Source: an uncultured Alphaproteobacteria bacterium
GTDB lineage: Bacteria > Pseudomonadota > Alphaproteobacteria > RF32 > CAG-239
DNA: 64,000 bases
Reading direction: 5' to 3'
Assembly (NCBI GenBank): GCA_934277435.1
Contig: CAKQUE010000001.1
Span: 781 to 64,780, forward strand
Shown: piece after piece, positions 147-55,466 of the stretch
Position numbering within the stretch: position 1 is the stretch's first letter
Layout of the letters: each line of letters begins with the position of its first letter
Notes under the pieces: generated by a model
What the model was told of the DNA's origin: nothing
Database searches by the model: none
The model's input: only the letters and a program-made list of their open reading frames with translations
Position numbers and translations under genes: made by a program

Positions 147-185
147 AAACACCTCGTTTTTTAAGCGAGGTGTTTTGCTTTTATT
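147..185 (+). terminator. Rho-independent terminator after gyrB
   Basis: Stem aaacacctcg / cgaggtgttt with loop ttttttaag, followed by tgcttttatt. Confidence 0.6.
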
Positions 186-831
186 AAAAATACATAGAAA
201 CTTCACAGCGTCCGGCTACATCACAAGGATCACAAGACGCTTTTATATCGGCCAATGACATATCACGTAAACAAAGCTGACGTTTAGAATCGCAATAAGC
301 ATCTCCATAATAAGGTTTAGCACTGCCGCCCAAGGACCAAGTTCCCCGCCCCATTTTTAACACGTCATGTAAAGGTTGAATAACAGTTTGCAAAATTTGC
401 ATACACATTCTTTTAGGCTTATCTCGTTTTTTTCCGTAAGCTATTCCGGAGCCGCCTAAAATTATTACTATAACATAAGAACATGGCTTATTGTTGTCAC
501 AATTCCATTCAATTCCCAAATAATTACCGGCACTATCTCGCAAATATGCAGGCTGATAGTCAGGATACCACTTTGCCGGCAGTAGGCCTGCATTATATAA
601 AGTATTTCTGAAGTTAATAACACCTACGGTGTTTGGGTAATTCTTTTCAAAATTTGGGCGATATTCTAGCAAATTACGAACGAGTTCGCTATATTCATTC
701 ATAAGTTTGGTTGTCTTATATTTTTCCATAGCTTTGGAGAATCCGGCAATTCCGCCAACGGATAGAACAGCAATAATCGCCAACACACCCAGCATTTCTA
801 TCATAGAGCGACCTAATTGGCTATGTTTCAT
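184..831 (-). CDS. Type IV pilin / pseudopilin-like protein (prepilin-type N-terminal cleavage/methylation motif)
   Basis: N-terminus MKHSQLG|RSMIEMLGVLAIIAVLSVGGIAG: short basic leader, Gly then Glu at +5, 20-residue hydrophobic helix; C-terminal Cys pairs; GGAAG RBS upstream. Confidence 0.55.
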   Translation of the reverse strand: MKHSQLGRSMIEMLGVLAIIAVLSVGGIAGFSKAMEKYKTTKLMNEYSELVRNLLEYRPNFEKNYPNTVGVINFRNTLYNAGLLPAKWYPDYQPAYLRDSAGNYLGIEWNCDNNKPCSYVIVIILGGSGIAYGKKRDKPKRMCMQILQTVIQPLHDVLKMGRGTWSLGGSAKPYYGDAYCDSKRQLCLRDMSLADIKASCDPCDVAGRCEVSMYF

Positions 832-43538: not shown

Positions 43539-43601
43539 TTTAGTTCTCCTTAAGTAGAATTATATACATTTATATCTTAACGCAAATCTGTAAACTTTTC
43601 C

Positions 43602-43650
43602 AGCTTTTTTGTAGTTATGCAACTTATTGTTTTTGCTACAAAAAAAAGCT
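43602..43650. promoter_or_regulatory. Imperfect inverted repeat (AGC-T6-GTAG … CTAC-A8-GCT) in divergent virB2 / pilus-operon promoter region; third half-site TATTTGTAGCATG at 43694-43706
   Basis: Read directly from the 310-bp AT-rich intergenic region between divergent operons. Confidence 0.4.
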
Positions 43651-43848
43651 TGTCACAAAAATTTCACATTTATATACACAGCATATACGCGCTATTTGTA
43701 GCATGAAAAGGTAAATAATTTGATAATAAATAATACGGTGTAACGCTTGTTTTTGTATGGCTTACACTTTGTTTTTTGCTATTAACTCTATTTTAACACA
43801 ATTAGATGTATTCTGCCGATAAGACGGGTGTCCTATATGCCGTAGTGC

Positions 43849-45513
43849 GTGCGGATTCCTGCATTTAAGGGTAATGAAATGCCAAATTTTGGTTGGAAAT
43901 GTTTTATTGGTAGCTTTCTTTTTTCTTTAGCGGCGGTGTTTGCCTCCACTAAAGTTTATCTTTTATTGCCTATTGAGCACCAAAATCCTGTAGAGAAAAC
44001 AGCTTTCGAGGACATTGAAACCAAAAATATAGACTTATTTGCAGACAATGAAGAATCCAATCCGATTGTTGAAAAGTTCAATGAAATAAATAATAAACAG
44101 GCTAAAATAGCTGCTATTCAAGATATTGCTCCGACTACTGACACCCCAAAAAGCGTGCAATCTGATGTTTCTGTGGCAGATAAAGAGGATAAGCCCATTG
44201 AAATATCTTCACTTTCTTCAGATGTACTTTATGCTCCAGATGAAGATATGTCGGAAATTTCTGTCACTGATGCTGATAATTCAGCAAATAAAGATATTGA
44301 CGAAGCGCCAGAAATTTCTGAAAATCAAGAAACAAATCCTGTAAATAGTAACTCTTTTGAGCAAGCAATCTTGGTGGACGATACTGAAGATGAAAGCTTG
44401 CAAATTGCCGACGCCTCCGAAGCCAGACCATTTACTATACCTTTATTGCATAATTTTCAGGTTGCTGCGCAAAAAGTAGAAGTTTCTAATGAAGCTGCAA
44501 ACAGTCAAGTCGCTTTAGCCTCAAACAATGTTTTAATTCAAAATATCGGCACCGAAAACAAAATAGCTGCCGCCAGCGGAGAACCAAATAACTTAGTTCC
44601 AGACACAGCTGAGAACGATTCCGACCCTTGGGAAGTGGCAGCAGTGGGAAACTCTCATATAACAAAAAATAAAATCGATAGTTTCACAGGCGATGGAAAT
44701 AAAACTATGGAGGCTTTAGACCAAGATAAGCTTGCTGAGGCTAAATCGCCTAACGAAAAACAAGTTGCGTATAAAATGGTTAAAAACATTTTAATCCCAA
44801 TTCCAGAGGACATCGCTAATGATGAAAATTTGACGCCGCAGCTTTCTTATTCGGAAGAAAATAAAAAACTAAGCGAAAAATTACAAAAAGAAGGCATCTT
44901 AAATCCACCAACACCAATAAAGGAAGAAATAAAAAACAAAGAAGAAACGACCACAACTCCTGTGCCTTTGACTAACAATCAAAGTGAAAATAAACTATCT
45001 GAACCGAGCCTCACTGATAGTATTGCAGCTTGGTTTTCTTCCAATCCTTCGTCAGATAATAATTCTACAAACAATAAGGCGGATAAAGATAAAGATAAAG
45101 ATAAAAATAAAAAAGAAGAAAGCAGCAGTTCTACTTTTAGCAAACTTTTGGGACTAGGAGCCAAAAAAGACAATAATATTGCTCCCTCAGAACTGAAACT
45201 AGCTTTTCAGCCCGACCGCGCAGAGATTTCTGGACAGACGCTTGATTGGTTAAAAGCTTTTTCTCTGAACGCTGTTAACAATGAAAACGTGTTTGTAGAA
45301 ATACGCATTGACGGTTCAAGCTCTTTTGAGCTACAACAAAAACGTTTGAACCTTCTATATTCAATCTTAGTAAATAATGGTGTTGATTATAATAAAATTA
45401 ACATAATTTTTACGGATAGAGAGCCAAACTCTTTTATTATTAGAAATGTTAGATATGCCAGCGAAGATGATGCTATCAATGTTCATAAAAAGGCTTACAA
45501 TCCATGGTATTAA
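43849..45513 (+). CDS. Acidic bitopic/secreted protein (554 aa), first gene of pilus operon
   Basis: N-terminal hydrophobic segment FIGSFLFSLAAVFA; long acidic region with KDKDKDKDKNK stretch; C-terminal β-rich domain. Confidence 0.4.
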   Translation: MRIPAFKGNEMPNFGWKCFIGSFLFSLAAVFASTKVYLLLPIEHQNPVEKTAFEDIETKNIDLFADNEESNPIVEKFNEINNKQAKIAAIQDIAPTTDTPKSVQSDVSVADKEDKPIEISSLSSDVLYAPDEDMSEISVTDADNSANKDIDEAPEISENQETNPVNSNSFEQAILVDDTEDESLQIADASEARPFTIPLLHNFQVAAQKVEVSNEAANSQVALASNNVLIQNIGTENKIAAASGEPNNLVPDTAENDSDPWEVAAVGNSHITKNKIDSFTGDGNKTMEALDQDKLAEAKSPNEKQVAYKMVKNILIPIPEDIANDENLTPQLSYSEENKKLSEKLQKEGILNPPTPIKEEIKNKEETTTTPVPLTNNQSENKLSEPSLTDSIAAWFSSNPSSDNNSTNNKADKDKDKDKNKKEESSSSTFSKLLGLGAKKDNNIAPSELKLAFQPDRAEISGQTLDWLKAFSLNAVNNENVFVEIRIDGSSSFELQQKRLNLLYSILVNNGVDYNKINIIFTDREPNSFIIRNVRYASEDDAINVHKKAYNPWY

Positions 45514-45559
45514 CTTCTGCTTGCTATTTTAATTTCAACCTGTATTATAGGAAAATACG

Positions 45560-46339
45560 ATGAGATACAACTTTGAAAGAAATATTATGACTAATAAACT
45601 TGCTTTGATGAGTTTATGCTTGAGCTTAGTAATGATAAGCGGCTGCGTAAGCGACAAAAGTTATATGGAAGAAGAATGCGAAAACGGTATTTGCACCAGT
45701 GAAAAAGAGTATCGTGAAGTTTGCACAGAAACTCCTGATGGCTTCAGTGTATGTGAAGACAGTGTTGAACCAGCAGAAAACGTTAACTATACCAGAACTC
45801 AAGCCGATTTCCGCAAATATGGCGAGCGTACTCCTAGAGATCATCGTATTACGCAAGCCGGCGCCGGAAACAATATTTCGGCTGCCGTTCCGCCAAGCAT
45901 AGATGATGAAGTTGTTGATTATGAAGCTGAAGTTATGGAACGCGATACTCCGACAACACCTTGCGCGGATGGTGTGACACCTGCTGGCGCACCTTGCCCT
46001 GCTGCGGCTGTGAATACATCTGCTGCGGAAACAGAAGAGAATACCGAAACAAATTCGGAAGAAGAAGATCAAAATAAAGATTGGTTGGCTGAAGAAGGTC
46101 AAAGCCTGAAAGAATTATTAACAGCATGGAGTGAAGAGTCCGGCTGGAGATTAATTTGGAAAACCAACCGCAACTATACTTTAAACGCAGGCGCTATGTT
46201 CAGAGGTAATTTTGCCGATGTATCGTCTGCCCTTGTACGCGCTTTTGCCCGAGCAAGACCTGCTCCAATAGCCACATTTTATAAAGGTAACCGCGTCTTG
46301 GTAATTGAAACTATGGAGGACGAAAATGCGTATGACTAA
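45560..46339 (+). CDS. Lipoprotein with TcpQ/PilL-like C-terminal domain (secretin partner)
   Basis: Lipobox VMISGC; Cys-rich N-part; C-terminal …RGNFADVSSALVRAFARARP…FYKGNRVLVIE…; overlaps the downstream secretin gene, whose start is taken at 46326. Confidence 0.45.
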   Translation: MRYNFERNIMTNKLALMSLCLSLVMISGCVSDKSYMEEECENGICTSEKEYREVCTETPDGFSVCEDSVEPAENVNYTRTQADFRKYGERTPRDHRITQAGAGNNISAAVPPSIDDEVVDYEAEVMERDTPTTPCADGVTPAGAPCPAAAVNTSAAETEENTETNSEEEDQNKDWLAEEGQSLKELLTAWSEESGWRLIWKTNRNYTLNAGAMFRGNFADVSSALVRAFARARPAPIATFYKGNRVLVIETMEDENAYD

Positions 46340-47972
46340 TTTACTGAAACTTGCCGTTGTTGGAATTTTAGGCGTTACTGTTGCTTGTTCCGTTTCACCG
46401 GAAATTGACGAATCTATCTCGCGTCAAACCGAAAACGCGTTAGATTTGAAGCAAAAAGCCGCCGTTCCGGGCGACCCTATTCCAGATGACGTTGTAAGAG
46501 TTAAAAACGATATTTGGCTTGGCGACACCAGCAGTGTTGAATTTGAAGGTCAGCCTGTTCCGGCTTATTTGGAAACTAAAGATGGTATTACTTTAATTAG
46601 TAACCGCCCGATTACCCTTTATGAAATCGGCTCAATGATTAATAAAATCACCTCTCTTTCGGTACGCTATGCTCCAGAATTAGAAGAAAATGCCGTTGCT
46701 AATGCTGATAAAAACCAACCGGCAATGAAAGACATCGGTGCTCAATGGACAGATTCAACCAAGATGATTGTAAACTACAAAGGTCCTATCAGTGGTTTGC
46801 TTGACGAAGTTTCTAACCGTTTTGGAATTTGGTGGAAGTATGAAAAGAATGAAATCTATTTCTACAAATACATCACTAAAACATTTGTTCTTTATTCTTT
46901 ACCGACAAATCCGTCTCTGAGCGTTTCTGTTGGCGGTTCCGGCGGCTCTTCCAGCATTTCGCAGAGCAGCTCAGTTGACGGTATGGATATGTGGGCAAAT
47001 ATTCAAAGCACAATCAGTTCTATGATTACCTCTGATTCAAACTTGGTAATGGATAAAGGCGCGGGCACAATTACTTTGACTGCCACACCGACTGATATCA
47101 AACGTGTTGCAAAATACATTAATGAACAGAACCAACGCGTTTCAAAACAAGTTGCAATCAGTGTAAAAGTTATTCAAGTTAACATCTCTAATGCTGATAA
47201 ATATAGTCTTGACTTGTCTGCAACATTTAAAGGACGCGGCTCAATAAAAGATGTTACTGGGCACAACACATCAAGTATTGATAATCCTTTGACTGATTTA
47301 ACAATGGGCATTAGTTCAAGCCGTTGGAGTGTTGACGCCGCTATGCAGGCCTTGTCACAAGAAGGAAATACAAACCTTGTGACCAGCGGTACGGTAACAA
47401 CAATGAATAATAAACCGGCTCCAATTCAGGTGGTGAAAACACAAAACTATATTTCACAAATCACCAAAACAAACAGCGGCGATTCAGATACTTATGATAT
47501 TTCTGTAGAAACAGAAGAAATTGAGACAGGTTTCACCATGAGCGTTTTGCCAAGAATCTTGGATCATGGTCGTATCTTGATGTTCTTTAACTTAACTCTA
47601 TCTGATTTGTTATCTCTTGACGCGATAAATGTTTCCGGCGGTTCATCTTCTGACAGTTCATCATCGGATAAGACTGATGACAGTGACAGTGATAGTGACA
47701 GCAATTCCGGCGGTGACAGCGAATTTATTCAAAACCCTGTTATCGAAACCCGCGGCTTTACTCAAGAAGTTGCACTTAAATCTGGTGATACTTTGATTTT
47801 GGCAGGTTATGAACGTGTTGAAGATTCAACAGATAAGAAGGGCGTTGGCTCACCGAAAAACACTCTGTTGGGTGGTTCTCAAGCAGCAACAAGAAACAGA
47901 ACAATTTTAGTTATCATGTTAACTCCGGTTGTTTTGGAATCTCCTCTGTCGCCAGAGTCCAGAATGAACTAA
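46326..47972 (+). CDS. Type IVb-pilus-type secretin (BfpB/TcpC/PilN-like), probable lipoprotein
   Basis: C-terminal secretin domain (…FTMSVLPRILDHGRILM…VIETRGFTQEVALKSGDTLILAGYE…RTILVIMLTPVV); N-terminal signal ending …GVTVAC. Confidence 0.75.
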   Translation: MRMTNLLKLAVVGILGVTVACSVSPEIDESISRQTENALDLKQKAAVPGDPIPDDVVRVKNDIWLGDTSSVEFEGQPVPAYLETKDGITLISNRPITLYEIGSMINKITSLSVRYAPELEENAVANADKNQPAMKDIGAQWTDSTKMIVNYKGPISGLLDEVSNRFGIWWKYEKNEIYFYKYITKTFVLYSLPTNPSLSVSVGGSGGSSSISQSSSVDGMDMWANIQSTISSMITSDSNLVMDKGAGTITLTATPTDIKRVAKYINEQNQRVSKQVAISVKVIQVNISNADKYSLDLSATFKGRGSIKDVTGHNTSSIDNPLTDLTMGISSSRWSVDAAMQALSQEGNTNLVTSGTVTTMNNKPAPIQVVKTQNYISQITKTNSGDSDTYDISVETEEIETGFTMSVLPRILDHGRILMFFNLTLSDLLSLDAINVSGGSSSDSSSSDKTDDSDSDSDSNSGGDSEFIQNPVIETRGFTQEVALKSGDTLILAGYERVEDSTDKKGVGSPKNTLLGGSQAATRNRTILVIMLTPVVLESPLSPESRMN

Positions 47973-47991
47973 CAATTAAAGGAGAAAATCC

Positions 47992-49236
47992 GTGGCTGAT
48001 GATTTAGAAGAAGAAAAAGCATGGAAGTCATCTTTCTCTGAAAGCGGTGTGACCTATGCCGCCAGCTTGTTTTGGCAACCTTTAATCAATGATGACAATC
48101 CGCTTCCGGAAGTCAAAGAAGCTGCCGAAAACATTCTTGAAGGCGCCGACTTATATGCAGTGCGCAAAGGCAAATCATCTCAATTTGGTTTGGCGGCCTC
48201 TTCGCAAGGCTTTACCCACGGTATGCCTTCTGCAGCTATTGCTTTAGTTTCTGCGCTCGGTAACGTGACTTCATTTTTAGGCGTATTCAAAGTTGATAAC
48301 GGCTGGTGGTATATATGTTTTAGAAATGATGTTATCCTTTCTGATGGCGATACTTTGTTTGTAAACGAAAAAGACGCTAAGGATCAGTTTATTTCAATGC
48401 TGGCCGTTCCGGATTGGGATATGCTTTTCGCTCCGCAGGAATGGGGAATTGAAGACACAAAACCAGATGCTTTGGCGACTTTGATAAATCGCGGCCTTCT
48501 AGTAAAATTGGAAAAAATTAACGGTAGCAATGATGCTATTATGCTTGGCGTTGTTGTCGTTGGCTTCGCGATTATACTATGGTATGGTTACTCAACGATT
48601 CAGAGTATGTTTTTCTCGGCTCCTGAGGCTCCGGTGATTGCACCGGTGGAACAAGTACAAGCTCCTGCTCCAGAACCTCCAGAACCAAAACCATGGGAAA
48701 CTATAAAAAACCCTATAGACCAAATGCGTGAATGTTATGAAGCAACAAAAAAAGTTGTGCAAATTGTTACGCCTGGTTGGTCTATTGAAGGTATAACTTG
48801 CAATTCCGGCGGACTTGTGACCTCTTGGAAACGGGATTTAGGCCGTATTACTTGGATGGAACAAGCTTTGAATGTTTCTGGAGTTAATTTTACTTCTCGC
48901 GCGATATCTGACGATGGTAACACCTTTATGGTAACCGTGCCAATCGGTGAAATTTCGACGTTAAACTCTCCTCCGGAATATTCCGAACAAGACTTAAGAA
49001 ATATTATCAACGACTTAAATCAGACGTTGACAACAAATATTCAAATTGAGAAAAAAAGTTGGACTTCTCCAAGGGGAAAATTGTATAATATTATGAATTT
49101 TAGCATTTCATCAAACAATGATCCGTTAACTTGGATTGAATTGTTAATGAAATTTTCAGGTTTATCTGTTACAGAAATAACTTATGATATAAACAGCAGC
49201 ACTTGGACTTATAAGGGGGAAATTTATGAGTTATAA
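47992..49236 (+). CDS. Bitopic pilus assembly protein (BfpC/TcpR/PilO-like topology)
   Basis: 414 aa, single central TM LGVVVVGFAIILWYGY, cytoplasmic N-domain and periplasmic C-domain. Confidence 0.4.
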   Translation: MADDLEEEKAWKSSFSESGVTYAASLFWQPLINDDNPLPEVKEAAENILEGADLYAVRKGKSSQFGLAASSQGFTHGMPSAAIALVSALGNVTSFLGVFKVDNGWWYICFRNDVILSDGDTLFVNEKDAKDQFISMLAVPDWDMLFAPQEWGIEDTKPDALATLINRGLLVKLEKINGSNDAIMLGVVVVGFAIILWYGYSTIQSMFFSAPEAPVIAPVEQVQAPAPEPPEPKPWETIKNPIDQMRECYEATKKVVQIVTPGWSIEGITCNSGGLVTSWKRDLGRITWMEQALNVSGVNFTSRAISDDGNTFMVTVPIGEISTLNSPPEYSEQDLRNIINDLNQTLTTNIQIEKKSWTSPRGKLYNIMNFSISSNNDPLTWIELLMKFSGLSVTEITYDINSSTWTYKGEIYEL

Positions 49237-50833
49237 TCTTAAAAATAATAACATTGTCATGATTGCTGTGGCGATTGCCGCAATTATGACTATCAGCCCT
49301 GCAGCATATGCACAAACTGCAGACAATCAGATTAATGCTGAAGCACCTGCTCCCCAGGTCCATGAAAATGACGATTTGTTCGGATTAGATGAACCTGCAG
49401 ATGGCACTCCGGCAGAAACAAGTTCTGACGCCGCATCCGAAAATGCAGTTGCAGATGAAACAGCTGTTCCAGCACCTATTGCTGATGAAAATAGTCAAAC
49501 ACAGGCAGAGTCTGCACCTCAAGGCCTAGCTGACGTTGACAAAGCTGCTGGTGAAGCTCAACCTACAGAGGAAAACAACAAAGAAGTTCAACCAAGTAAT
49601 GTTGATTTGAACTCTATTCCTGATACTTCCACGGATGAAGGTAAAAAATCTTTAGAGGCTGCAACATCTGACAGCGATGAACAAGTTGCTATTGAAGCGC
49701 CTAAATCTCCTTTTGAAAACTTTGGAAATGCTATTCTTTCTAAAGTTGACAATAGTTTATTCAATCAAATGTCTAACATTGAAAAACAAACAACTATTCT
49801 CAATTTGGAATATAAGCGCGAAGAAGTGCGTAATCGTATTGAAGCTTTACGTATCCAGCGTCTGAAAGCTCAACAAGAAGAGGCTAGTCGTCTTAAGGAA
49901 GAAGAAAACCGTGCAAAAGATGAAGAAAATAAACGTAAAATTAAAGAAATTGAAGCGCAAGAAAAATTGAAACGCGCCGAAATGGAGTTGGAAAAAATTC
50001 GTCAAGCCAAAGTCTTAAATGAATATATGAACGAAATGTTGATTGTTAATCAGCAATGGGTTGAAAAAAATGCAGCTTTACAAAGTAAAGTAAAAGAACT
50101 TCGCGATGAACGCAAAGCCTTAATCAAAGATTTTGAGGATAAAATTTCTACAATTAAAAAAGAATCTGATGCTACCATTTTGAAAGCGCAAAATGCAAAA
50201 GAAGCACATAATAAAGTTGTATCCTCATTGCAAACTCAAATTTCCAGCTTGAAAAAAGCTATTATACAAAGTGAAGATACAATAAATCAGTTGAAATCAG
50301 GTAACGGTAACTCGGCTAATCCGTTTGCGGAGGGTATAGACGAAAATGCTATTGATATGTCTGATGAATATGCTATCATGGATATAACTGGTAAAGGCAA
50401 AGATATTATTGCTAAAATCATTAATAAAGATGGTACTACATTTATTGTTCACCAAGGTTCTATGCTGAAAGGCGGCGAAGTTGTGATGGCAATTACTGAT
50501 AACTATATTGCTTTTGATAATAAAGGAGTTAAAAGCTACTTATATACCGGCGGAACAGTTCGCGAATATGAACCTGAAAATTCTTTTAACGGAGCAGACA
50601 AAACTCCTGTTGCCGCACAAGGTGTTGTTAACAACAATAATGTAGTGCGTAATGTGCGCGGTGCCCCTATTACCCAGCAAGCTGGTTCAAATTTGAAAGA
50701 AGCAACCGGAGCAGCAGTGGCAAAACCACAAAATAAAGGCGCTGCAGATAAAAAGGAGACAATAAATACAGCCAAACGTAGTAGTACTAATGCTAGTATT
50801 GGTTCGATTGGACAGGATATGTTTGTTAAATAA
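49226..50833 (+). CDS. Secreted coiled-coil protein with PilP-like C-terminal β-domain
   Basis: Signal peptide; acidic N-part; coiled-coil; C-terminal …IMDITGKGKDIIAKIINKDGTTFIVHQGSMLKGGEVVMAITDNYIAFD…. Confidence 0.45.
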   Translation: MSYNLKNNNIVMIAVAIAAIMTISPAAYAQTADNQINAEAPAPQVHENDDLFGLDEPADGTPAETSSDAASENAVADETAVPAPIADENSQTQAESAPQGLADVDKAAGEAQPTEENNKEVQPSNVDLNSIPDTSTDEGKKSLEAATSDSDEQVAIEAPKSPFENFGNAILSKVDNSLFNQMSNIEKQTTILNLEYKREEVRNRIEALRIQRLKAQQEEASRLKEEENRAKDEENKRKIKEIEAQEKLKRAEMELEKIRQAKVLNEYMNEMLIVNQQWVEKNAALQSKVKELRDERKALIKDFEDKISTIKKESDATILKAQNAKEAHNKVVSSLQTQISSLKKAIIQSEDTINQLKSGNGNSANPFAEGIDENAIDMSDEYAIMDITGKGKDIIAKIINKDGTTFIVHQGSMLKGGEVVMAITDNYIAFDNKGVKSYLYTGGTVREYEPENSFNGADKTPVAAQGVVNNNNVVRNVRGAPITQQAGSNLKEATGAAVAKPQNKGAADKKETINTAKRSSTNASIGSIGQDMFVK

Positions 50834-50835
50834 AA

Positions 50836-52605
50836 ATGGCTAACCAAGATGTAAAACAAGTTCAGACTTTAAGCAGCGCCGAGCGTATAAGCTCTGGCGT
50901 GCTTAAGCCTGCTACGGCGGATAAAACATCTAATATTAAGCCTGCGGCACCAGAAATAAAGCAAGAATCATCATTAACCCCGCCACCAATTAAAAAAACA
51001 TCTGATATTGTGGAAGATGCGGCTGAAACAAAGAAAAGCGGCAATATTCTACAAACATTATTTGCTAACGGTAACAAAGTATTAACTTCTGAAGATGGTG
51101 ATTTAAACATCAATAGTGAAACCCGCAGAATGTTGGTATTATTTTCTGACGGTACATATCTTATTGATGAAGCACATCGTTTTGACGGACAAGTTCTGAA
51201 CTTTACAGCCATTGCTAAACGACGCAAGCTGATTATGCATACTCCTAAGTATGTATCAAGCCAAGAAATTTCAGCTATTTACGCCTATGCAATGCGTGGC
51301 GCTGGCGAAATCAAGATGTCGGCCAAAGAATCTGCCGACTATCAAATGCAAATAGACTTTTTGAGCGTGATTAACCGTGCTGCAGCCAAAAATGTTTCCG
51401 ACGTGCATGTTGTTGTGGCTGATTCAACCTTAATTCTGTTTAGGGTTAATGGTATGATGGAGCGAGAGCTGGAATACTCTGCCGAATGGGGTGAAGCTTT
51501 TGTACGTGCTGCTTTTGCATCGGCAGATATTTCTGATGCAAACTATGCTCAAAACGAGTTTCAAGGTGCGCAAAAACTTGGTTCAACTCCATTGCGCGGT
51601 ACAGATGGTAAATTAACCTTGCCGCATAACGTTTTGGCTATTCGTTTACAATTTAATCCGGTTGCTTTCGGTTCACAATATCTGGTTATGCGTCTTTTGT
51701 ACGCTGATGATAATCCTAATGGTAACGGAGATTTGAAATCTCTAGGCTTAGGAGAAAGAGAACTAAATTTATTTTATCGTCTGCGAGCAACTGCAGTAGG
51801 TCTGAATATTGTTGCCGGTCCGACTGGTTCTGGTAAATCAACTACCTTGCAACGCAACATGATTAAGATGATTCAAGAGCATAACGGCGAAATTAATGTT
51901 ATTACCGTGGAAGACCCGCCTGAATATCCTATTCCGGGGGCACGTCAGATGCCTGTTACTAATGCAAACAGCGAAGAAGAAAAAAATGAAGAGTTTACAA
52001 AAGCGTTGTCGGCTGCTTTGCGTTCTGACCCAGATGTAATGATGGTTGGTGAAATTCGATCTTTAGCAACCGCGGATTTGGTGTTCAAGGGCGCGCTTTC
52101 TGGTCATAGTGTATGGTCAACATTGCACGCCAACTCCGCACCGGCAATTATAACTCGTTTCCGCGATATGGGGGTACAGCCGTATATGCTTTGCGACCCA
52201 GAAATTATGAAAGGATTGATTTCTCAACGTTTATTCCGAAAAATTTGTCCTTATTGCCGAATTTCAATTAAAGAAAGAATGAGCGACCCCTCTTATGGCC
52301 GTCTGAAAACCGCGCTTGGCGACTATGGTATTGAAAATACTTATGTCCGTGGCCCTGGATGCAAATATTGTAATCATAAAGGTGTAATCGGACGTATGTC
52401 TGTGCCTGAAATTATTGTTCCTGATGCACACTTTTTACAATTGATGGTCAATGGCGACACCAAAAACGCTATTGACTATTGGGTTAGTGAACTAGATGGC
52501 AGACCTTTGCGAGAAGCGGCAATTGAAAGAATGCTGAAAGGCTATATTGATTTAGATGAAGTGGAACGTTGGTGCGGATTATTGGATCAGCGCCCGATTT
52601 ACTAG
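50836..52605 (+). CDS. GspE/PilB-family assembly ATPase (BfpD/TcpT/PilQ-like) with N-terminal extension
   Basis: Walker A GPTGSGKSTT, Asp/His boxes, tetracysteine motif CPYC…CKYC. Confidence 0.85.
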   Translation: MANQDVKQVQTLSSAERISSGVLKPATADKTSNIKPAAPEIKQESSLTPPPIKKTSDIVEDAAETKKSGNILQTLFANGNKVLTSEDGDLNINSETRRMLVLFSDGTYLIDEAHRFDGQVLNFTAIAKRRKLIMHTPKYVSSQEISAIYAYAMRGAGEIKMSAKESADYQMQIDFLSVINRAAAKNVSDVHVVVADSTLILFRVNGMMERELEYSAEWGEAFVRAAFASADISDANYAQNEFQGAQKLGSTPLRGTDGKLTLPHNVLAIRLQFNPVAFGSQYLVMRLLYADDNPNGNGDLKSLGLGERELNLFYRLRATAVGLNIVAGPTGSGKSTTLQRNMIKMIQEHNGEINVITVEDPPEYPIPGARQMPVTNANSEEEKNEEFTKALSAALRSDPDVMMVGEIRSLATADLVFKGALSGHSVWSTLHANSAPAIITRFRDMGVQPYMLCDPEIMKGLISQRLFRKICPYCRISIKERMSDPSYGRLKTALGDYGIENTYVRGPGCKYCNHKGVIGRMSVPEIIVPDAHFLQLMVNGDTKNAIDYWVSELDGRPLREAAIERMLKGYIDLDEVERWCGLLDQRPIY

Positions 52606-52614
52606 GAGTGAAAA

Positions 52615-53733
52615 ATGCCTGAAATAAAAAAACAAAGTGCCTTTAATAAAGCTATGCGTAACAACAACCAATGGTTGATGTCTTATGCAAAGATTATATG
52701 TTCCATGTCTAATAAAAACCGCCTGAAAATATACCGAAAACTAGCGGCGCTGCTGCGTAACCGTTTTTCGCTTATGAATGCATTGGATATGATTTACAAC
52801 GGCTTGTCCGAAGATGGTAAACATCCTAGCGACCCAATGGCTATAGCTGTTGGTTGCTGGGGTAAATCATTGCAAGAAGGTCACCCATTTTCTGATTGTT
52901 TGAAAGGCTGGGCGCCGAGCCGTGAACGTTTGATGCTGTCTGTGGGTGACGTATCAGACTTGGAAAGCGCCTTGTTAAACTTGATTAAGGTGACAGAAGG
53001 TTCAACACGTATGATTCGACCAATCATTAGCGCCGTTGCTTACCCGTCATTTTTGTTGATGATGTCTGTATTAATTCTTTATGCTATCGGTGTTTATATG
53101 GTGCCGCCTATGCTTGATGCTGCTCCAAACACACGCTGGACCGGCACGGCTAAAACTTTGATTGATTTGTCTGAATGGATTCAAGTAAATTGGCTCATTG
53201 CTTTTTCTGTGTTTCCAATTTTAGGCTTATTAATCTATACAACCATTGGTATTTGGACAGGTCCTGTTCGAGTTAAAATTGACCATTGCCCACCTTGGTC
53301 ACTGTATAAAATTTTTACCGGTATTACTTGGCTGCTGGCTTTATCCGCGTTGGTTAAGGGCGGTGTACCGGTATCTGTGGCCTTAACATCACTACGGCGC
53401 GATTCTAATAAATACCTGAAAGAAAGAATCGATGGAGCTTTATTTCACATAAAAAACGGTGATAACTTGGGGCAGGCTTTAGATAAAGCAGGGCAAGAAT
53501 TTCCGGATAAAGCAATTATTACAGACTTAAAAATTTATTCTGAGTTGGATAACTTTGAAGAAGCTCTGGATAAATTGGCTAATGAATGGCTGGAAGAATC
53601 TGTATACATGATTGAGCAAAGAGCAGAGATTATGAACATGATTGCCATGCTGGCAGTTTCCGGTATTATTGCTTGGGCTGTATTCGGAACCTTTGATATG
53701 CAAGATCAAATTACGAGCGCTATGGGTAAATAA
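52615..53733 (+). CDS. GspF/PilC-family inner-membrane platform protein (BfpE/TcpE/PilR-like)
   Basis: 372 aa, 3 TM segments, two-repeat GspF-like architecture. Confidence 0.65.
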   Translation: MPEIKKQSAFNKAMRNNNQWLMSYAKIICSMSNKNRLKIYRKLAALLRNRFSLMNALDMIYNGLSEDGKHPSDPMAIAVGCWGKSLQEGHPFSDCLKGWAPSRERLMLSVGDVSDLESALLNLIKVTEGSTRMIRPIISAVAYPSFLLMMSVLILYAIGVYMVPPMLDAAPNTRWTGTAKTLIDLSEWIQVNWLIAFSVFPILGLLIYTTIGIWTGPVRVKIDHCPPWSLYKIFTGITWLLALSALVKGGVPVSVALTSLRRDSNKYLKERIDGALFHIKNGDNLGQALDKAGQEFPDKAIITDLKIYSELDNFEEALDKLANEWLEESVYMIEQRAEIMNMIAMLAVSGIIAWAVFGTFDMQDQITSAMGK

Positions 53734-53746
53734 AAAGGATAGAGTT

Positions 53747-54295
53747 ATGCTAAAAATATCATTCAATTTAGAGAAAGCTCGTCTTAACGGATTATTTGGT
53801 ATAGCCATTTTGGCTTTATTGTTAATCTCATGTATAGCGCTGAGTGTGCTCTTACTGCATAATCCGCACAAGGAGTTACATCAAGCCATATTTTCAACAG
53901 CAGATAGGGTGCACACATATTACCGCGACCGCCCTGGATATTGGAAACTGTCTACGCAAACCGCAAAAGATGACAACTTGTTACGTGATGACTTGCAGCA
54001 GTATAAAGAATATAACATTCAGATTGGGCGAGGCACCAACGGCGACGCAGGTCTGCCAAGTGATTTGAGTTTTGATATTACGGTTAAAAACCTTAATAAG
54101 TCGGCCTGCATTTCTCTTAGTGAAATGCCACTAAAGAAACAAGATAAGCTTATCTTGATGAAAATAACAATTATTAATGACAAAAATAATGTAGAATTTT
54201 CTTGGGGCGGAGAACATTCTCTGCCAATAGGAAAATACTCTGCACGTAGTTTTTGCGCGGCTAAAGATAATATTATCAGCTGGTCATTTCAATAA
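53747..54295 (+). CDS. Small N-terminally anchored protein (182 aa); pilus-associated, not a canonical pilin (no Glu+5)
   Basis: Start moved to ATG 53747 (MLKISFNLEKARLNGLFGIAILALLLISC…). Confidence 0.35.
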   Translation: MLKISFNLEKARLNGLFGIAILALLLISCIALSVLLLHNPHKELHQAIFSTADRVHTYYRDRPGYWKLSTQTAKDDNLLRDDLQQYKEYNIQIGRGTNGDAGLPSDLSFDITVKNLNKSACISLSEMPLKKQDKLILMKITIINDKNNVEFSWGGEHSLPIGKYSARSFCAAKDNIISWSFQ

Positions 54296-54464
54296 AATAT
54301 AATCATTATAAGATAAACTTGACGTCAGCACCTAATTGTGATATAGGATACTGAATAATATAGAAATGGGTTAGGTAACTAGCGCTTTTTATATTATTAT
54401 CCCCTATATTCAAAGAATCCTTTTGTTTATTAAACAAGAGGATTTTTCTTTGTATACAGAAAGC

Positions 54465-54492
54465 ACCCCGCTAAATTTTATGGTTAGCGGGG
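54465..54492. terminator. Bidirectional terminator between convergent pilus operon and PilT-like gene
   Basis: caccccgctaa-attttatgg-ttagcgggg then T-rich. Confidence 0.55.
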
Positions 54493-54500
54493 TTGATATT

Positions 54501-55466
54501 TTATTTTGAAACCACATCAAACAGCGGACGGCCTTGTGCCATACGCGTCATCTGCATTTCTATAGTTGTAGCCAAGTTAATCTTTCCGGTTTTGATAATG
54601 TTGCGGGTTTGGTCGCCTTGAGTAGTATTTGGATTGGCAAACAAATACTGAACCACAGGACGCTTTTGCCCTATACCAACCAATTGCTGGTGAATAACAC
54701 CCAATAGACCGCGTGACAACAAGTCAAATGCCAATTCTTCGCTCATTTCACCGCCGGAAGCGTGTTTTACTAAAGCATCGATAGCATCAGCAACGTTGTT
54801 AGCGTGAATTGTAGAAAGCACCAAGTGGCCCGAGGTTGAGGCACGCAGGCATTCGCTTGCAGCTTCTGGGGTACGAATCTCGCCCACAAAAATGTAACGC
54901 GGGCGTGAACGCAGGGCTGAACGTAATGAAGCCCCCCAATCATCATTTACCGGTTGTGTTTGCTTGCACAAACCTATAGAACCATTAGCGGCGTGATATT
55001 CTCCATCCAAAGGCATTTCAAACGGATCTTCAATTGTATAAGCAAAACCACCGCTGCGAATCAAATATTCTCGCAACAAACTGGAAATAGTGGTGGTTTT
55101 ACCAGAACCGGTGGCGCCGCCTAGCAAAATCAAACCAGATGCATTGCTCAATGTTGACAAGTATTTTATCAAAGCCGGCGGATAGCCTAAACTCACTAAA
55201 TCCGGAACTTTCTTTGGCATTTTACGCATACAAAACATTACGCCATACATTGAAACCGTACGTTCAACGCGGAAAAAGAATCCTTCATAAACAACCGAAT
55301 AACTGGATTTACCATTATAGGTATTTTCCAGCAAACTGTAAAATTCTTCAAAATCATCTGGTTCTAATTGCACCAAACCAAATTCTGATTTGGTGTCAGG
55401 AACAAACATTTGTCTATCAGGCGTGATATAAATATCTGAATGATAAACATCATTAATTCTAACCAT
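54501..55466 (-). CDS. PilT/PilU-family (retraction-type) ATPase
   Basis: 321 aa; Walker A GGATGSGKTTT; …IFVGEIRTPEAASECLRASTSGHLVLSTIHANN…. Confidence 0.7.
   Translation of the reverse strand: MVRINDVYHSDIYITPDRQMFVPDTKSEFGLVQLEPDDFEEFYSLLENTYNGKSSYSVVYEGFFFRVERTVSMYGVMFCMRKMPKKVPDLVSLGYPPALIKYLSTLSNASGLILLGGATGSGKTTTISSLLREYLIRSGGFAYTIEDPFEMPLDGEYHAANGSIGLCKQTQPVNDDWGASLRSALRSRPRYIFVGEIRTPEAASECLRASTSGHLVLSTIHANNVADAIDALVKHASGGEMSEELAFDLLSRGLLGVIHQQLVGIGQKRPVVQYLFANPNTTQGDQTRNIIKTGKINLATTIEMQMTRMAQGRPLFDVVSK

Follow-up and report, generated by a model that had tools for sequence, protein, structure and literature searches.

A chromosomal type IVb pilus machine of the BFP/R64 kind, with a pilin-fold protein lacking Glu+5, in uncultured gut Alphaproteobacteria

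Background

What is known of type IVb pili comes almost entirely from enteric pathogens and conjugative elements, and an apparent type IVb assembly operon on the chromosome of an uncultured gut alphaproteobacterium raises the question of what machine it encodes, from which subunits its fibre would be built, and what that fibre might serve. The operon in question lies in a 64,000-nucleotide stretch (contig CAKQUE010000001.1 of assembly GCA_934277435.1, positions 781 to 64,780; hereafter the window). Here, eight tightly packed or overlapping open reading frames (ORFs) are found on the forward strand between 43849 and 54295, and an ORF of 321 codons at 54501-55466 converges on them. An initial annotation, made from the letters of the window, had interpreted these genes as a type IVb pilus operon, adjacent to and divergent from a type IV secretion system (T4SS).

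The analysis presented here makes it close to certain that the locus encodes a type IVb pilus machine with a BfpF-like ATPase. It is a chromosomal relative of the bundle-forming pilus (BFP) and R64 thin pilus systems and thus belongs to a known kind of apparatus, with one odd part, namely a conserved pilin-fold protein encoded within the operon that lacks the glutamate at position +5 (Glu+5) on which assembly depends in every canonical pilin. This gene, at the pilS position, was missed by the initial annotation, as was the OmpA-like nature of the first gene. With a probability of about 0.7, we favor the interpretation that the eight-gene operon (43879-54295, forward strand) and the convergent ATPase gene together specify a type IVb pilus machine of the BFP/R64 lineage that is complete, retractile and vertically inherited, and whose parts have the roles proposed below.

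Results and discussion

The conserved components of the pilus machine

The assignment of the operon to the type IVb class is borne out by the joint presence of a PilO2/BfpC-family protein, a TcpQ/BfpG domain and a PilN-type secretin (Table 1), and the TcpQ, secretin, T2SSE and T2SSF profiles each matched the gene to which the corresponding identity had initially been given. The PilL/TcpQ/BfpG-like lipoprotein, the presumed partner of the secretin, displays a lipobox (LVMISGC) and a C-terminal domain with 36% identity to BfpG (E 6e-19) and 43% identity to the TcpQ-family protein of the R64-type operon of Bosea. The secretin likewise possesses a lipobox (GVTVAC), and its translation probably begins at 46326 rather than at the mechanically assigned start. 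Its best match in NCBIfam is the PilN type IVb secretin model TIGR02520 (E 4.2e-77, 259.8 bits), the score falling just below the equivalog cut-off of 287.65, while the MshL, GspD, PilQ and SctC profiles score far lower. In tblastn searches against plasmids the bitopic protein recovers proteins annotated as PilO2 (Bosea, E 2e-29) and BfpC (E 5e-11). Members of this family combine a cytoplasmic actin-like domain, a single transmembrane segment and a periplasmic domain, and dock the ATPase to the platform (PMC3984277). The extension ATPase retains a Walker A motif (GPTGSGKST) and the tetracysteine (Cys4) signature previously attributed to it, which is readable as CPYC...CKYC.

Two further components are assigned less directly. 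The protein at the PilP position has a single, weak profile match, to the PilP model TIGR03021 (E 1e-3, 20.1 bits against a cut-off of 34.65), and its pairwise comparisons with the protein at the equivalent position in Bosea and with BfpU are not significant. The earlier designation of this protein as PilP-like hence holds for its position, and its profile match remains below the cut-off; it is a putative periplasmic connector. The first gene of the operon most likely begins at a conserved ATG (43879), the GTG at 43849 being the mechanical ORF start. The OmpA-like fold of its C-terminal domain was recognized by fold search only, and a sequence search of this region against the PDB returned no match; on the basis of this predicted fold, the product is a putative peptidoglycan anchor of the machine.

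The convergent gene encodes a short ATPase whose proposed likeness to BfpF is upheld by 33% identity to annotated BfpF over the full length of the protein (318-321 residues, E 8e-47). It shows comparable identity to the PilT-like ATPases encoded within the Bosea R64-type operon (33%, E 1e-51) and within the operon of an Escherichia coli BFP-like plasmid (34%, E 9e-49). PilT is its best relative in the PDB (E 1.6e-24), and the short ATPases associated with type IVb systems are much closer to it. These sequence relationships point to a putative retraction motor.

Table 1. Features of the pilus locus and of related prepilin genes. Coordinates refer to the window unless a comparison locus (L number) is named; identity is the median across species to the window protein.
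Feature	Position	Strand	Median identity	Properties
Orphan canonical prepilin	184-831	-		MKHSQLG/RSMIEMLGVLAIIAVLSVGGIAGFSKAM... (slash, predicted cleavage site); Gly-1 and Glu+5
Divergent intergenic region	43539-43878			340 bp between the first VirB2 paralogue (-) and the pilus operon (+)
First operon gene	43879-45513	+	46%	544 residues; N-terminal membrane anchor, long low-complexity linker, C-terminal OmpA/Pal/MotB-like domain (residues about 440-544)
PilL/TcpQ/BfpG-like lipoprotein	45560-46339	+	69%	PF10671 TcpQ, E 4.9e-16, residues 174-250, 59 bits against a cut-off of 27
PilN-type lipoprotein secretin, outer-membrane channel	46326-47972	+	81% (30 species)	PF00263, E 1.7e-15; mechanical ORF start 46305
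PilO2/BfpC-family bitopic inner-membrane protein (PilO)	47992-49236	+	75%	PF06864, E 6.7e-23, 81.6 bits against 26.7, residues 23-402 of 414
PilP-position protein	49226-50833	+	48%	535 residues; signal peptide, acidic low-complexity region, long coiled coil, small C-terminal beta domain
PilQ/BfpD-type extension ATPase, GspE family	50836-52605	+	83% (32 species)	PF00437 (T2SSE), E 1e-66
PilR/BfpE-type GspF-family inner-membrane platform	52615-53733	+	85%	PF00482 (T2SSF), E 7.7e-23, two domains
Pilin-fold protein (182 residues), pilS position	53747-54295	+	52%	directly after the platform gene; type IVb pilin fold, no Glu+5
Terminator-like hairpin	54413-54447			between the convergent genes; 16-pair stem followed by a T run, consensus scan only
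BfpF/PilT2-like short hexameric ATPase	54501-55466	-	84%	321 residues; T2SSE, E 2.4e-32; no N1 domain, no Cys4 motif
Dispersed prepilins	L045 273-923, 13786-14430; L030 13186-13818, 19301-19957; L029 15352-16603; L017 14117-15169			

Phyletic distribution and conservation of the operon

A scan of one genome per species recovered 32 loci, all of them from metagenome-assembled genomes (MAGs) of uncultured gut, rumen or faecal Alphaproteobacteria, a few of which bear obviously wrong automated names. The order of the eight genes is identical in all 32, and the synteny downstream of the operon is kept across many species. Median identities to the window proteins (Table 1) set the core parts, at 75-85%, apart from the pilin-like protein, at 52%, as expected of an exposed or fast-evolving part. 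In 18 of the 32 species the gene for the BfpF-like ATPase follows the operon at a distance of no more than 10 kb. In some species (L005, L014, L016, L018 and L019) an insertion of 1.1-2.4 kb separates the pilin-like gene from the convergent ATPase gene; it includes an ankyrin-repeat gene in L005 (10550-12371) and an ORF of 708 codons in L018 and L019. A literature search on pili or T4SSs in RF32-type gut Alphaproteobacteria found nothing.

A type IVb pilin relative without a canonical class III signal

The last gene of the operon, an ORF also predicted by gene callers in public assemblies, encodes a 182-residue protein for which no Pfam match was found and whose 49 close homologues are all unnamed proteins from alphaproteobacterial MAGs. 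An AlphaFold2 model generated from the alignment of homologues is confident (predicted local distance difference test score, pLDDT, 85.8), and in a Foldseek search of the PDB with this model each of the top nine matches is a type IVb pilin (TcpA, CofA or the PilS of Salmonella Typhi), the predicted fold being nearest to CofA and TcpA. At the N-terminus a basic leader of 15 residues precedes about 22 hydrophobic residues, which are followed by a conserved Asn-Pro kink, and the pair Cys121-Cys170 is invariant. Sequence profiles lead to the same group of proteins: the PilS model PF08805 is touched by 7 of 24 orthologues, and a profile-profile comparison of the family with bundlin (BfpA) aligns 127 columns, including the first conserved cysteine (E 9.5e-4).

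A search of 1.8 billion representative sequences with the family profile yielded 136 clusters. The strong matches are all non-canonical proteins with a basic N-terminus, a membrane anchor and a conserved RPDYWGLNT motif, and the lower-scoring but still significant matches (E 1e-11 to 1e-4) are to canonical prepilins that begin ...G/RSM[IV]EMLGVLAIIGVLS (a GRSM[IV]EML N-terminus). One of these prepilins has both a Bundlin and a PilS Pfam domain, and the gene after it encodes a short T2SSE ATPase. The fold, the matches to PilS and bundlin profiles and this link to canonical prepilins establish the protein as a true relative of the type IVb pilins, albeit one without the canonical class III signal. 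No glutamate occurs in the hydrophobic segment of any of 36 distinct orthologues, and the glycine that precedes this segment is missing from several of them (for example L003, L023 and L024). The wider non-canonical family, comprising 97 clusters (taken at 50% identity) at E<=1e-10, generally shows a plain basic N-terminus and a transmembrane anchor without the glycine. The operon itself, as initially noted, contains no canonical pilin with Glu+5, and no further pilin gene was found inside it in any of the 32 species.

Two side observations come from other contigs. In the canonical relative just mentioned (L048, 7376-9055, an unrelated contig), the Bundlin/PilS prepilin gene is followed directly by that of a 331-residue T2SSE ATPase, with no machinery genes visible nearby; a pilin gene and a short ATPase gene may form a recurring unit. 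In the R64-type operon of Bosea pBSY19_1 (L043, 18389-18988), a 199-residue hypothetical protein is encoded between the genes for the PilT-like ATPase and pilV. It has a hydrophobic segment right at its start, no class III signal and no Pfam match, and may be another non-canonical protein at the pilin position.

Canonical prepilins dispersed over the chromosome

The only canonical prepilin of the window, as had been recognized at the outset, is the product of the gene at 184-831, which is flanked by ptsN and gyrB and has no pilus gene in its vicinity. It has the hallmarks of a type IV pilin, namely a Gly-1 site at which cleavage is predicted, Glu+5 and a hydrophobic alpha-1N helix (MKHSQLG/RSMIEMLGVLAIIAVLS...); its N_methyl Pfam match is weak (E 0.031). 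This protein belongs to a very large family, with 4576 cluster representatives at 90% identity, whose members share a near-invariant N-terminus (G/RSMIEMLGVLAIIGVLSVGGIAGYSKAM) and differ in highly variable, often cysteine-rich C-terminal parts. Paralogues are dispersed over the chromosome, several per genome, with three within 20 kb in L045 and others at 3-10 kb from the operon in L017, L029 and L030. Family members from L030 and L049 carry Bundlin/PilS domains, and a single MAG contains genes for an operon protein (DD619_02130) and for a prepilin of this family (DD619_02910).

The most telling arrangement is that of L049, a related system in which pilR is followed by a non-canonical homologue of the 182-residue protein and then by two canonical PilS/Bundlin prepilins. 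It is mainly because of this arrangement that we read the 182-residue protein as an accessory component and the prepilins with the GRSMIEML N-terminus as the subunits. By its class of N-terminus and by analogy with L049, the orphan prepilin of the window is a candidate fibre subunit of this machine.

The divergent control region and the neighboring T4SS

The adjacent VirB-type T4SS that had been proposed is real. Lying between engB and the pilus operon, on the opposite strand and divergent from it (17358-43538), it encodes VirB11, VirB10, VirB9/CagX, two VirB8 paralogues, VirB4, VirB3, and three TrbC/VirB2 paralogues together with a fourth small ORF. Some of its parts are unusually expanded: VirB10 is a protein of 1406 residues with beta-flower repeats, and a second beta-flower protein (PF21785, PF21784) has 1267 residues; VirB9/CagX bears a C-terminal SPOR domain; and large proteins of 1372, 566, 460 and 411 residues from this region have no family match. 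A further VirB8 paralogue is encoded in a related strain (L045, 20272-20648), about 10 kb beyond the position that corresponds to the left edge of the window, and parts of the T4SS may be scattered around the chromosome.

The intergenic region between the first VirB2 paralogue and the pilus operon probably holds the promoters and operators of both the VirB2-side and the pilus operons. The same head-to-head arrangement occurs in L040, L041 and L042, in which the first pilus gene product is 62%, 53% and 47% identical to that of the window, and across these four lineages the region contains several invariant non-coding blocks, for example ATTAACTCTATTTTAAC and AAGACGGG...CCTGCATTTAAGGG; ATTAACTCTATTTTAACA is likewise invariant (control regions: window 43539-43885, L040 9670-10012, L041 9664-10012, L042 609-993). 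There is, in addition, a weakly supported leader hairpin over the ATG, in which GCAUUU pairs with AAAUGC across the start codon, with five compensatory pairs in four sequences only. The conserved, though not universal, synteny suggests a functional coupling of pilus and T4SS. Because the two share a conserved divergent control region, the pilus probably serves the T4SS by providing contact, in analogy to the conjugative systems discussed below.

The locus is chromosomal and, as the initial annotation had stated, devoid of DNA-transfer genes: the VirD4, relaxase and integrase families had no match among the scanned ORFs of the window (here and below, nearly all those of 100 residues or more), and no tRNA gene was found within the window. 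Rfam likewise gave no match within it. The G+C fraction is even, at 0.34-0.46 over the window and 0.37-0.42 over the pilus-T4SS stretch. This block is flanked on one side by rnpA-yidC-engB and on the other by genes for an M29 peptidase, an ABC transporter, ldcA, queH and uvrA; the housekeeping content of the window as a whole comprises lptC/A-lptB-hpf-ptsN, holC, degP, hflKC, rnpA-yidC-engB, the M29 aminopeptidase, an ABC exporter, ldcA, queH and uvrA. An origin of the window from an integrated conjugative element or plasmid was dropped on these grounds, together with the conserved synteny of the flanks.

Relationship to known systems

The BFP of enteropathogenic E. coli is encoded by the gene array bfpA-G-B-C-U-D-E-F-P-H-I-J-K-L. 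The window locus shares with it the core order of a TcpQ-like lipoprotein (BfpG), a secretin (BfpB), BfpC, a small periplasmic protein, a Cys4 ATPase (BfpD), a platform (BfpE) and a short ATPase (BfpF). It differs in that the retraction ATPase gene is separate and convergent, in that the operon is headed by the gene for the OmpA-like anchor, and in the absence of the BfpP peptidase, the BfpH transglycosylase and the BfpI/J/K minor pilins. Its pilin-fold gene, moreover, comes last rather than first and its product lacks Glu+5, with a fold that is only remotely bundlin-like. Finally, BFP resides on a virulence plasmid, whereas the present locus is chromosomal in Alphaproteobacteria.

With the R64 thin pilus and its relatives (PAPI-1 pil2, Burkholderia pseudomallei Tfp7 and Bosea pBSY19_1), the window system has in common a secretin that matches the PilN type best and a PF06864 PilO2 protein; with PAPI-1 and Tfp7, the lack of a prepilin peptidase gene in the operon and a separately encoded PilT2-type ATPase; and with the IncI plasmids, pYR4 and PAPI-1, a T4SS that adjoins the pilus locus. 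Unlike R64, it has no PilV adhesin or shufflon, Pfam-recognizable PilM, PilT transglycosylase or PilU among the scanned ORFs; its protein at the PilS position has a degenerate class III signal; its secretin does not quite reach the TIGR02520 equivalog cut-off; and its T4SS, which does not lie on a mobile element, is accompanied in the window by neither a relaxase nor a coupling protein. Sequence identities to the Bosea operon (PilQ 37%, PilR 34%, PilO 28%, PilN 26%; overall range 26-43%) and to the BFP-like operon (PilQ 34%, PilR 33%, PilO 26%, PilN 26%) place the window system at about equal distance from the two. The R64-type loci of PAPI-1 and B. pseudomallei Tfp7 have no peptidase in the operon and a separate pilT2 ATPase gene, and in Pseudomonas aeruginosa processing is done by the type IVa peptidase PilD (PMC3984277). 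Neither the lack of a peptidase gene nor the separate pilT2-type ATPase gene of the present locus is therefore new. Plasmids, too, have been described on which a type IVb pilus and a T4SS occur together (PMC6232867).

The TcpQ domain and a pilin fold nearest to CofA and TcpA are shared with the toxin-coregulated pilus (TCP) of Vibrio cholerae and the colonization factor antigen III (CFA/III, Cof) of enterotoxigenic E. coli. TCP itself, however, has neither a retraction ATPase nor a Pfam match to the PilO2 family, and the window encodes no large minor pilin of the TcpB/CofB type and no secreted TcpF/CofJ. A type II secretion system (T2SS) resembles the locus in its GspE-family ATPase with Cys4, its GspF-family platform and its secretin, but no GspC, GspL, GspM or pseudopilin GspG-K family matched the operon or the flanking proteins, a T2SS being the alternative raised at the outset. 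The T2SS reading was rejected on this basis and on that of the secretin, whose match to PilN (E 4e-77) is much stronger than that to GspD (E 1e-8). In the literature searched, we found no description of a conserved pilin paralogue without Glu+5, of an OmpA-like first gene, of the dispersal and very large expansion of cognate prepilins, or, in this clade, of a T4SS without relaxase that is stably paired with the pilus on the chromosome.

A proposed mode of action and its alternatives

In the machine as we picture it, the OmpA-like product of the first gene would fix the apparatus to peptidoglycan, and the coiled-coil protein at the PilP position would link the inner-membrane complex of PilO2/BfpC protein, platform and Cys4 ATPase to the secretin. 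The fibre would be built mainly from dispersed canonical type IVb prepilins, such as that encoded at 184-831, after processing by a peptidase encoded elsewhere, and would be retracted by the BfpF-like ATPase. The 182-residue protein would not form the bulk of the fibre; it would be an accessory, pilin-like component that acts either as a membrane-retained basal or priming element or as the first (tip) subunit, which would not need Glu+5. The pilus would then probably provide retractile contact between cells, or between cell and host, for the relaxase-less T4SS, much as the R64 and PAPI-1 pili serve conjugation. The roles of the OmpA-like protein, the 182-residue protein and the dispersed prepilins, and the functional link to the T4SS, are the parts of this picture that we infer.

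Several observations weigh against it. In at least 8 species (8 loci with a full flank) the 10 kb that follow the operon contain no gene for a BfpF-like ATPase, and in L002 the operon has no adjacent T4SS, a HAD hydrolase gene being found upstream instead. The PilP assignment is weak, position being the one point of agreement, albeit one kept in all loci. As for the fibre, the globular part of the orphan prepilin has no detectable similarity to the 182-residue family in profile-profile comparison, and this prepilin has no PilS or Bundlin Pfam match; the dispersed prepilins may be served by some other type IV filament machine of these genomes. The operon lacks a prepilin peptidase gene, as had been noted from the start, and a scan for the GxGDxK motif together with tblastn using a BFP-type A24 peptidase found no A24 prepilin peptidase in the window and the related loci (0.9 Mb), so that the processing of the pilins is presumed.

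The identity of the fibre subunit is the point at which a different reading has most to offer. The 182-residue protein could itself be the major pilin, cleaved after Gly15 or left uncleaved and polymerizing without Glu+5, with the dispersed prepilins belonging elsewhere. Its gene immediately follows pilR, at the pilS position; the structures that it matches best are those of major rather than minor type IVb pilins; and its layout fits that of R64-type prePilS, with a hydrophilic leader of 15 residues ending in Gly and about 22 hydrophobic residues (PMC6232867). It also keeps the C-terminal disulfide pair, is the fastest-evolving globular protein of the operon, and has no rival pilin gene inside the operon in the 32 species. 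Yet Glu+5 is absent from all 36 orthologues and the glycine from several, the wider family of 97 clusters mostly displays a basic N-terminus and an anchor without the glycine, and in L049 a family member coexists with two canonical PilS/Bundlin prepilins encoded directly downstream. We also know of no described type IV filament whose major subunit lacks Glu+5, and on balance consider this reading unlikely. The apparently uncleavable nature of the pilin-like protein in many lineages, and the lack of a peptidase gene linked to the operon, would also suit a device that forms no long pilus at all, in which the membrane-anchored pilin-fold protein is part of a short piston that works in secretion, either in the manner of a T2SS or in that of the TcpF/CofJ-type export of TCP and CFA/III. 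Type IVb systems do export soluble proteins. Such a device is nonetheless hard to reconcile with the lack of GspC/L/M or GspG-K homologues and of any candidate exoprotein gene in the operon, with the conservation of a BfpF-like retraction ATPase gene beside it, with a secretin and accessory proteins that are all of the pilus type (PilN/BfpB, PilO2/BfpC, BfpG), and with the canonical PilS/Bundlin prepilins attached to the operon in a sister lineage; we regard it as very improbable.

A comparably slim chance attaches to the view that the locus is a thin-pilus module which, as in R64 and PAPI-1, belongs to an integrated conjugative element or a plasmid and stabilizes mating pairs for DNA transfer through the neighboring T4SS. 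A head-to-head placement of pilus and T4SS is indeed seen in the window and in three further lineages, and IncI plasmids, pYR4 and PAPI-1 typically have a type IVb pilus together with a T4SS (PMC6232867, PMC3984277). Against this stand the missing relaxase, VirD4, integrase and tRNA genes, the flat G+C, the housekeeping flanks, the downstream synteny maintained in many species, the lack of a PilV shufflon adhesin, and the lineage in which the operon occurs without an adjacent T4SS. The vertically inherited, retractile pilus machine proposed above remains our preferred reading.

A tandem duplication of ptsN in the window

Apart from the pilus locus, the window contains a tandem duplication of ptsN (PTS_EIIA_2). 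The segments 1154-1453 and 2409-2708 form a direct repeat, 97% identical at a spacing of 1255 bp, and the two copies correspond to the ORFs at 1156-1599 and 2411-2854, with an ORF of 104 codons in between. The related contig L045 has one ptsN copy only.

Conclusions

The locus reveals a deep, vertically inherited branch of type IVb pili in widespread uncultured Alphaproteobacteria of the human gut and the rumen, and is a concrete candidate for the means by which these organisms attach to host or partner cells. A more far-reaching conjecture, which we offer as a doubtful but attractive one, is that the 182-residue family (at least 97 clusters, all lacking Glu+5 and most lacking Gly-1) constitutes a hitherto unrecognized obligatory part of one type IVb branch, an unprocessed protein anchored in the inner membrane that would prime or anchor a fibre of dispersed, hypervariable prepilins (4576 clusters), and that the pilus, co-regulated from the shared divergent region with the relaxase-less T4SS, would form with it a contact-and-inject module aimed at the host or at neighboring cells. 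The existence of a pilin-fold protein without Glu+5 bears on the question of what primes or anchors type IV filaments as they assemble, and provides a clean test case of whether the pilin fold can work without processing by a prepilin peptidase. The conserved head-to-head placement beside a non-conjugative T4SS would broaden the notion that pili assist T4SSs to functions other than the transfer of DNA.

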